Counted from the first letter of the whole stretch, positions 7,808 to 8,165 are shown. The stretch is DNA of 63,992 bases, filler included, from Collodictyon triciliatum (GCA_043381765.1; 28 parts of 28 records of this genome joined end to end with filler, not necessarily neighbours in it); one strand, 5' to 3'. Made by a program: numbers and translations. The notes: generated from the sequence alone by a model not told the origin.

Positions 7808-8049
7808 GTTTGCTGGCTGCACAAGTCGGCGGCTCGGTTATGTGAGTTTGCTGCGGGCCTTTGGCGGGATAAGACTTGCGTGGCTTTGTGGCATAGATCG
7901 CCGATCAGCTGCCAGTGGGTAAGGCAGAGGCCGCGCCATTGATGGGGTTTTGGCTTTGGGGCTTTGGCCTGGTGTGGTCAATGATTCCATAACTGGAATA
8001 ATATCATTTCGGATTTAGTTGTGTGGTGTGTCCATATCTATCTATAATG

Positions 8050-8165
8050 AGTATACCATTCTTTCGATTGGTAAACCTGGTGCGCTAGTATCCAAGGTCT
8101 CACCACTTTTTTTCACAAAGATTGTGCGGTGGCGAAGGCTGCCAGGAAAGACCCAACAGCCTAGT
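8050..8165 (-). ncRNA. Candidate Fanzor omegaRNA scaffold (four tandem stem-loops)
   Basis: On the minus strand just after the RuvC-III coding region: stems at 8136-8162, 8100-8135 (with nested CACAA/TTGTG), 8075-8098 and 8054-8073 (GAAA tetraloop). The position matches the TnpB/Fanzor omegaRNA location. Confidence 0.55.

Follow-up and report, generated by a model that had tools for sequence, protein, structure and literature searches.

Genomic setting of the locus

On its minus strand, one small contig of Collodictyon triciliatum (GCA_043381765.1) carries the remnant of a Fanzor1-type nuclease gene, four abutting predicted hairpins immediately 3' of the conserved part of that gene and, further downstream, an open reading frame (ORF) of G+C-rich DNA. 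The contig is part of a stretch of 63,992 bases (hereafter the window), which consists of 28 pieces split by 27 identical linkers, in each of which two runs of 44 N enclose a 12-base spacer that has stops in every frame. The pieces are mostly 2177-2192 bp in size and are arranged in roughly descending order; two of them (2242 and 2279 bp) have internal N runs. Microsatellites terminate many of the 28 pieces. In the window, small unplaced contigs with no relation to one another are joined end to end, and the sole genuine context of the hairpins is the following piece.

6876..9065, no strand: contig with the hairpins (piece 4), 2190 bp between linkers

This contig terminates in a poly-C run (9047-9064). 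Because 9065 is the contig end, the sequence past 9065 is foreign to the hairpin locus. A Cyclin_N domain (E 1.2e-13) was found on a neighboring, non-contiguous contig. Together with an intron-like GT..AG gap in the ORF beside the hairpins, this domain appears to indicate eukaryotic DNA.

A decayed Fanzor1-type nuclease gene

The features recognized in the reading frames upstream of the hairpins are listed below in 5' to 3' order. P0008 is a full-length relative, and A1 is a 19-sequence profile of relatives.

8164..9046, minus strand: Fanzor1-type (TnpB-like) nuclease pseudogene; C-terminal ~40%, corresponding to residues ~351-602 of P0008 (of 634 aa)
8969..8971, minus strand: RuvC-I catalytic Asp codon, in the frame beginning at 9064; nearly invariant D372 column of A1/P0008
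8608..8610, minus strand: first in-frame TAA stop, seen in the three-frame translation; frame changes just upstream and downstream
8389..8391, minus strand: RuvC-II catalytic Glu codon; aligns to the invariant E530 of P0008/A1
8359..8370, minus strand: first C-x-x-C of the zinc finger, just 3' of the RuvC-II Glu codon
8306..8308, minus strand: second in-frame TAA stop, just 3' of the frame change in the A10 run 8325-8316
8240..8242, minus strand: RuvC-III catalytic Asp codon; aligns to the nearly invariant D581 of P0008/A1

The 144-aa frame at 9046-8615 was used as the query in a phmmer search against 1.84 billion representatives, which retrieved 82 relatives at E<=1e-3 and 10 at E<=1e-10. Its nearest database relatives are short fragments that are 44-77% identical to it. 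The full-length relative P0008 (634 aa) aligned to the contig over residues 351-602 in tblastn (E 6e-23), and hhalign of the 144-aa piece against A1 gave a probability of 99.7% (E 3.9e-25). When searched against the PDB, P0008 matched the solved Fanzor1 proteins SpuFz1 (8gkh; E 9.2e-37), PpFz1 (7.2e-34), and GtFz1 (7e-16). The 144-aa piece had no direct PDB match at E<=1, so the link of the remnant to the solved Fanzor1 proteins is transitive, via P0008.

The Asp (I), Glu (II), and Asp (III) of the split RuvC domain occur in the proper order, but in different reading frames. According to the alignments to P0008 and P0067, the second Cys pair of the zinc finger is reduced to one Cys codon (8302-8300). 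The Pfam family PF07282 (Cas12f1-like TNB) matched the remnant with E 0.0024 and 18.4 bits, under its 26.3-bit cut-off; among 14 homologues, 8 matched this family at E<=0.01 and just 1 scored over the cut-off. Judging from these alignments, the reading frames beside the hairpins are a Fanzor1 (TnpB-like) remnant, which bears out the assignment of the adjoining ORF to Fanzor in the initial annotation of this DNA.

The homologous reading path contains four frame changes, located at ~8623-8619, ~8565-8558, ~8434-8427, and 8325-8316, of which the last three coincide with runs of A (A6, A7, and A10, respectively). Consistent with this, the homologue P0007 aligns to the remnant in three different frames (tblastn). 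The three frame changes in the A6/A7/A10 runs could be sequencing errors; such errors could not have caused the two TAA stops and the lost Cys. Stop-codon reassignment was considered for both TAA codons and rejected, because they align to differing homologue residues and occur together with frame changes. Introns in place of frameshifts were likewise rejected, because no intervening sequence interrupts the homologue alignments at the frame changes. At the N terminus, ~350 residues are lost to the contig end, and the remnant does not hold an intact ORF of about 600-700 aa, as in Fanzor1. As far as its reading frames tell, the nuclease gene of this copy is dead.

Four hairpins directly 3' of the conserved protein

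In the MFE structure of 8040-8165, folded as minus-strand RNA, four stem-loops abut without spacers over 8162-8054. All four of the back-to-back hairpins that had been described earlier from inspection of this DNA are therefore present, as is the loop of GNRA type (GAAA) that had been noted in the last of them. The predicted stems and the sequence that follows them are listed below; p denotes the pairing probability, and shuffles are counted if they fold as well as the stem.

8136..8162, minus strand: SLa; 11 bp including 3 G:U, 5-nt loop; p 0.75-1.0; z -4.49, 0/200 shuffles
8100..8135, minus strand: SLb; 7-bp outer stem (1 G:U), 2x7 internal loop, 5-bp inner stem, 3-nt loop
8074..8099, minus strand: SLc; 7 bp with one bulge, 11-nt loop; p 0.33-0.62; weakest of the four
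8054..8073, minus strand: SLd; 5+2 bp around an A.A mismatch, closed by the GAAA tetraloop; p 0.85-1.0; z -5.02, 0/200 shuffles
8043..8053, minus strand: unpaired 11-nt tail in the MFE fold; the TAG of the open frame lies at 8044-8042
7979..8008, minus strand: fifth, weaker hairpin; 6+4 bp, 5-nt bulge; z -1.83, 7/200 shuffles; in the A+T-rich stretch before a jump in G+C

The four-stem cluster contains 37 pairs (19 G:C, 13 A:U, and 5 G:U). For SLb, the pairing probabilities are 0.85-0.98, except for the innermost pair of the inner stem (0.49), and 6 of 200 shuffles fold as well (z -2.36). SLa, SLb, and SLd were retained in 191-, 281-, and 301-nt contexts. SLc was lost to other pairings in the 191-nt fold, and all four stems were retained in the fold with pairing probabilities of the 301-nt context (8260-7960).

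We found 16 tblastn alignments (E<1e-8) that reach the 3' part of the remnant. The end point is 8177 for five of these, 8213-8219 for another five, and 8305-8314, ahead of RuvC-III, for four; the remaining two extend to 8144 and 8105, with no convincing identity beyond ~8177. With the homology ending at ~8177 and SLa starting at 8162, the hairpins, which are on the sense strand of the gene, begin 2-15 nt past the point where conservation in the protein family ends. The RuvC-III frame is nevertheless open from 8305 to 8045, through all four stems, and closes with the stop TAG at 8044-8042, which coincides with the scaffold boundary proposed earlier. The statement that the hairpins come after the ORF thus holds for the conserved protein, but not for this open frame. 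Among 22 homologues with RuvC-III, the C-terminal tails past the last conserved motif range from none to ~55 aa and are mutually unlike, so this region is without protein-level constraint in the family. Since the frame is open to 8044, the stems may once have overlapped a C-terminal tail, as in GtFz1.

Fold stability compared with chance

As minus-strand RNA, the 126-nt stretch 8040-8165 has an MFE of -39.8 kcal/mol, compared with -28.8 +/- 3.5 kcal/mol for dinucleotide shuffles (z -3.14; 1/200 shuffles as good). Its stability is thus above that of the shuffled controls, the comparison that the initial annotation had set beforehand as a check on its claim. The plus strand folded as RNA gave z -1.32, with 24/200 shuffles as good. 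With DNA parameters, the values were z -2.30 (6/200) for the minus strand and z -1.41 (20/200) for the plus strand. The per-stem z-scores (200 shuffles each) refer to stem boundaries that were picked after the fact. By this measure SLa, SLb, and SLd are individually strong, but SLc is not above chance (z -0.56; 52/200 shuffles as good).

Compared window-wide (126-nt windows, step 21, both strands, N-free), the cluster ranks 29 of 5436 in GC-adjusted MFE, and 7 of 828 GC-matched 126-nt windows fold at least equally well. The fold is unusual (top ~0.5-1% of this DNA) and not unique, and it is notable mainly through its location. The MFE gap between the minus and plus strands is 6.7 kcal/mol, and it is equalled or exceeded in 954 of 2718 windows. 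The G:U pairs had been regarded as a mark of RNA structure; five are present, but because a strand gap of this size is commonplace in the window, the argument from them for an RNA on the minus strand is weak.

Searches for further copies and known RNA families

The cluster is known from a single copy. When 7950-9050 was compared with each of the 28 contigs by blastn (word 7, E<=10), only chance matches (<=41 nt) were returned. A covariance model built from the single sequence and its MFE structure, run with filters off, found only itself in the window, and the next best match had 9.9 bits and E 0.24. Among prokaryote genome contigs, a 24-base stretch of SLd had 0 matches, and a protein-seeded scan gave 60 pattern matches, of which 0 were confirmed. 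Word-indexed protein searches were empty for both the 144-aa piece and an 87-aa frame spanning RuvC-III and the hairpins.

Searched against the RNA families of Rfam at E<=10, the contig had no match within the hairpins, and the only two matches outside them were weak (E 6.4 and 7.8). At the gathering score, the whole window had 0 Rfam matches, although Rfam 15 may hold no Fanzor omegaRNA family. ARAGORN reported 0 tRNA or tmRNA genes. A tRNA-like or known-RNA identity of the hairpins was rejected on the basis of these Rfam and ARAGORN results.

Right end, candidate guide, and downstream ORF

Two further features were placed 3' of the hairpins.

8025..8042, minus strand: candidate guide (flanking DNA), 18 nt, by position only
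7259..7807, minus strand: G+C-rich (about 60%) host ORF with ATG at 7807, ~235-245 nt downstream of the hairpins

Both the candidate guide of 18 nt and a scaffold end at 8043/8042 are guesses made from position. For the right end of the element, any position between 8043/8042 and ~7975 would be equally possible; at ~7975, the G+C content rises from ~35% to ~60%. The fifth hairpin (8008-7979) marks an alternative position for this end. In a TIR search, no part of 7975-8165 had an inverted partner in the contig, which is without the left end of the element. The host ORF is followed by a GT..AG intron-like, A+T-rich gap and then by a short further open stretch. It had no family match in Pfam, Atlas, or PDB searches, and a resemblance to nicalin was dropped as these searches gave no support.

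Interpretation and alternative explanations

The locus was compared with four reports on Fanzor and related RNAs (Saito 2023, PMC10432273; Xu 2024, PMC11423790; Jiang 2023, PMC10530073; Yoon 2023, PMC10711439). As described there, Fanzor1 omegaRNAs are 75-150 nt in length with two to four stem-loops, derive from the ORF 3' end or the 3' inverted repeat and the sequence between them, and take a guide of 14-15 nt from the flank (PMC10432273; PMC11423790; PMC10711439). By description rather than by sequence, the hairpin cluster appears to fit these RNAs in strand, position, length (~120 nt), and multi-stem shape. With a probability of roughly 0.55, we interpret 8162-8043 (minus strand) as a relic scaffold, left by the omegaRNA (reRNA/fRNA) of a Fanzor1 transposon copy that has decayed. 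The earlier reading of the hairpins as a candidate omegaRNA scaffold is favored by the Fanzor1 remnant, the sense-strand position, and the fold relative to shuffles; with the nuclease dead, it is narrowed to a scaffold that would be a relic or trans-dependent at best. The points that count against a relic scaffold are the single copy, the ~0.5-1% of background sequence that folds as well, the chance-level SLc, the commonplace strand asymmetry of the fold, the first stem of 11 bp, the frame open to 8044, the lack of an Rfam match, and the dead nuclease gene.

There is a real, if minor, chance that the stems never functioned as RNA and are accidental structure in pseudogene DNA, namely its decaying 3' tail and flank. 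After GC adjustment, an equal or better fold occurs in 29 of 5436 local windows, and in 7 of 828 that are GC-matched; SLc has a z of -0.56; the stretch was chosen by eye from 64 kb; and neither blastn nor the covariance model supplied a supporting second copy within the window. However, the cluster is located at the one spot where a Fanzor RNA would be expected, so the tail probability of ~0.5-1% holds without a large multiple-testing penalty. Two of the stems (SLa and SLd) were equalled by 0 of 200 shuffles, and the arrangement is compact, with four stems abutting and no spacers, all of which argues against coincidence. It is quite improbable that the region is former coding sequence only, i.e., a ~40-aa C-terminal tail of the nuclease ending at the TAG at 8044-8042, with incidental stems. 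The RuvC-III frame is indeed open from 8305 to 8045, and homologue tails extend up to ~55 aa past the last conserved motif, but the 22 homologue tails share no sequence with one another or with the tail of this copy. Moreover, ~40 stop-free codons would arise by chance in a few percent of cases (a rough estimate from base composition), which makes the open frame not compelling, and coding and omegaRNA roles are compatible, given that the GtFz1 RNA overlaps the last 17 codons of its gene (PMC10432273).

A signal at the DNA level is improbable as well. The stems would then be terminal or subterminal palindromes of a transposon end, such as transposase sites or a Helitron-like 3' hairpin, rather than an RNA scaffold. 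Under DNA parameters the minus-strand stems form too (z -2.30, 6/200), several transposon superfamilies are described as carrying Fanzor1 genes (PMC3627910), and a Fanzor1 TIR has been placed inside the RNA scaffold, such that the two roles overlap (PMC10711439). A palindrome that binds protein as a double strand should be symmetric, whereas the five G:U pairs are mismatches on the other strand and the plus strand is near its shuffles under both parameter sets; in addition, 7975-8165 has no inverted partner within the contig, although the left end lies outside it. It is barely credible that the stems are a host regulatory element of the G+C-rich gene downstream (ATG 7807), in its promoter or 5' leader. 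They share the strand of this gene and lie ~245 nt ahead of its ATG, but they are A+T-rich like the Fanzor remnant and abut it, host-like G+C-rich sequence begins only from ~7975, and no Rfam cis-element matched.

For a relic omegaRNA scaffold, the published family suggests how the active element may have worked. An RNA of ~120-140 nt would have been produced by processing of the Fanzor transcript at its 3' end or of a separate 3' transcript, and the nuclease would hold the stem-loops of this RNA at its RuvC/TNB surface and RuvC-WED junction. The 3' end of this RNA would lie ~15 nt beyond the transposon right end, in flanking DNA, and the flank-derived extension would be the guide for TAM-dependent DNA cleavage. 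By inference from the same family, the stems would be RNA bound by the nuclease, and the flank would act as a guide. With its own nuclease gene inactivated, this copy would depend on an intact one elsewhere to supply the protein for any action of the RNA, and there would be no present selection for the RNA in cis. Most likely, the scaffold is simply decaying, more slowly than is noticeable over 120 nt. The stems look better kept than the adjoining reading frame, an impression gained from one copy. It is highly improbable that the scaffold outlived the gene by continued use. In one form of such use, it would be an orphan omegaRNA loaded in trans, through which intact Fanzor1 copies elsewhere would be aimed at the sequence flanking the dead copy; in the other, the G+C-rich host gene, which starts ~245 nt downstream on the same strand, would have taken it over as a structured element in its upstream region.

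If confirmed, the locus would provide another Fanzor1 omegaRNA, one of intermediate size (~120-nt scaffold, four stems), and a data point on scaffold variability beyond SL1 in a Fanzor1 lineage with fragment relatives at 44-77% identity. Genome annotation would benefit as well, with the 3' boundary of a decayed element fixed ahead of a host gene, and the locus could lead to intact family members that merit testing as compact editors. The principle involved, in which the RNA is made from the 3' end of the ORF together with the right end of the element and the flank provides the guide, is already established for Fanzor1, and no new question is opened by this locus.

Comparison with known omegaRNAs

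The stem-loop counts given for Fanzor1 omegaRNAs are two in Spu and Pp, three in SfAV, and four in Gt (PMC11423790; PMC10711439), and the lengths given are 150 nt for GtFz1, 90 nt for SpuFz1, and 75 nt for PpFz1 (PMC11423790). In the account of the three solved Fanzor1 complexes, SL1 has 7 bp and contacts RuvC/TNB, and the rest of the RNA is variable (PMC11423790). In the cluster described here, SLa has 11 bp and a length of 7 bp is found only in the outer stem of SLb, so a fit to the 7-bp SL1 is not evident.

The closest solved protein is SpuFz1 of Spizellomyces punctatus (P0008 versus 8gkh, E 9.2e-37). As in the locus studied here, its omegaRNA is described as being on the sense strand and starting right past the conserved C-terminus, and it reaches the right end (PMC10432273). 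In contrast, the SpuFz1 scaffold is given as 75 nt with two stem-loops and an SL1 of 7 bp (PMC10432273), whereas the cluster spans ~120 nt, with four predicted stems and 11 bp in the first of them. The SpuFz1 RNA was shown by small-RNA-seq, pull-down, and cryo-EM and its conservation is reported for 42 loci with the gene and 134 'ghost' loci that lack the ORF (PMC10432273); what we have here are predicted stems in one decayed copy.

Similar to the cluster, the omegaRNA of GtFz1 from Guillardia theta has four stem-loops in a row, with a total of ~150 nt (PMC11423790), and it overlaps the coding end (PMC10432273), as the open frame to 8044 would imply here. Of the three solved Fanzor1 proteins, GtFz1 is the one least similar to P0008 (E 7e-16). 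Its RNA is described as having an interaction between SL2 and SL4 and an SL1 of 7 bp (PMC11423790), whereas the structure here is known as a predicted secondary structure only.

The Fanzor1 reRNA of Spodoptera frugiperda ascovirus 1a (SfAV) is likewise a multi-stem RNA, with a three-stem shape (PMC10711439). It is described as free of pseudoknots, comes from the 3' end of a non-autonomous element that carries only Fanzor1, and has a guide extending ~15 nt into the flank (PMC10711439). The TIR and TSD of that element were identified and are within the scaffold (PMC10711439), whereas the left end of the element here lies outside the contig.

The same logic as proposed here applies to the ISDra2 TnpB omegaRNA. 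In this bacterial IS200/IS605 element, the RNA derives from the 3' end of the nuclease ORF and the right end, and the guide comes from the flank. ISDra2 is a prokaryotic ssDNA transposon without TIR or TSD, and its omegaRNA has a pseudoknot/triplex. This architecture sets it apart from the Fanzor1 RNAs, which reportedly form without a pseudoknot (PMC10711439).

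Composition of the stretch and other pieces

The window consists of 28 unrelated contigs of ~2.2 kb each, arranged in roughly descending order of length. Each linker is composed of 44 N, a 12-base spacer with stops in all frames, and another 44 N (e.g., 9066-9165). Any apparent feature that extends across a linker is an artefact. Two open reading frames (ORFs) with domain matches lie in other pieces:

6005-6292, minus strand, piece 3: ORF fragment with a Cyclin N-terminal domain (Pfam, E = 1.2e-13)
12468-13124, minus strand, piece 6: ORF whose match to an EamA-like transporter stays under the threshold (22.9 bits against a cut-off of 28.2; E = 1.1e-4)

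The Cyclin N-terminal domain confirms the eukaryotic source of the sequence.

Stable folds elsewhere in the stretch

Relative to their own G+C content, several 126-nt windows elsewhere in the stretch have folds that equal or surpass that of the four abutting hairpins that form the candidate relic omegaRNA scaffold:

~24298-24423, plus strand
~61531-61698, minus strand
~37507-37884, both strands
~26272, plus strand

None of these windows matched an Rfam family at the gathering score. Inverted or simple repeats may account for some of them.

Region downstream of the Fanzor relic

Two features are found on the minus strand beyond the four hairpins:

7979-8008, minus strand: fifth small hairpin (6 + 4 bp)
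7259-7807, minus strand: G+C-rich ORF, with a further open stretch at ~7140-7050

The fifth hairpin is part of the A+T-rich DNA that separates the four hairpins from a jump in G+C content at ~7975, and represents a possible alternative position for the right end of the element. The ORF, which is downstream of the relic and on the same strand, has a G+C content of about 60%, compared with ~35% in its surroundings. Its N-terminus is hydrophobic, and it has a GT..AG gap that resembles an intron. No family was found for this ORF in Pfam, Atlas, or PDB, and a resemblance to nicalin received no support from these three sources.

Contig edge, frame changes, and insertion in the Fanzor remnant

The contig ends in a run of ~18 C (9047-9064, as read on the minus strand) at the place where the N-terminal portion of the gene for Fanzor is expected; this run probably arose as an artefact of assembly or sequencing at the contig end. 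Of the four frame changes in the remnant, a decayed Fanzor1-type nuclease gene, three are located in A runs, namely, 8316-8325 (A10), 8427-8434 (A7), and 8558-8565 (A6). Such a pattern would fit homopolymer sequencing errors just as well as real slippage mutations.

Compared with the full-length homologue P0008, the remnant has an in-frame insertion of ~34 aa (in the region 8700-8850, minus strand), located between RuvC-I and the next helix. This insertion is shared with the closest fragment relatives (P0001, P0003, P0004, P0006, and P0007) and is a lineage-specific trait of the Fanzor1 subfamily to which the remnant belongs.
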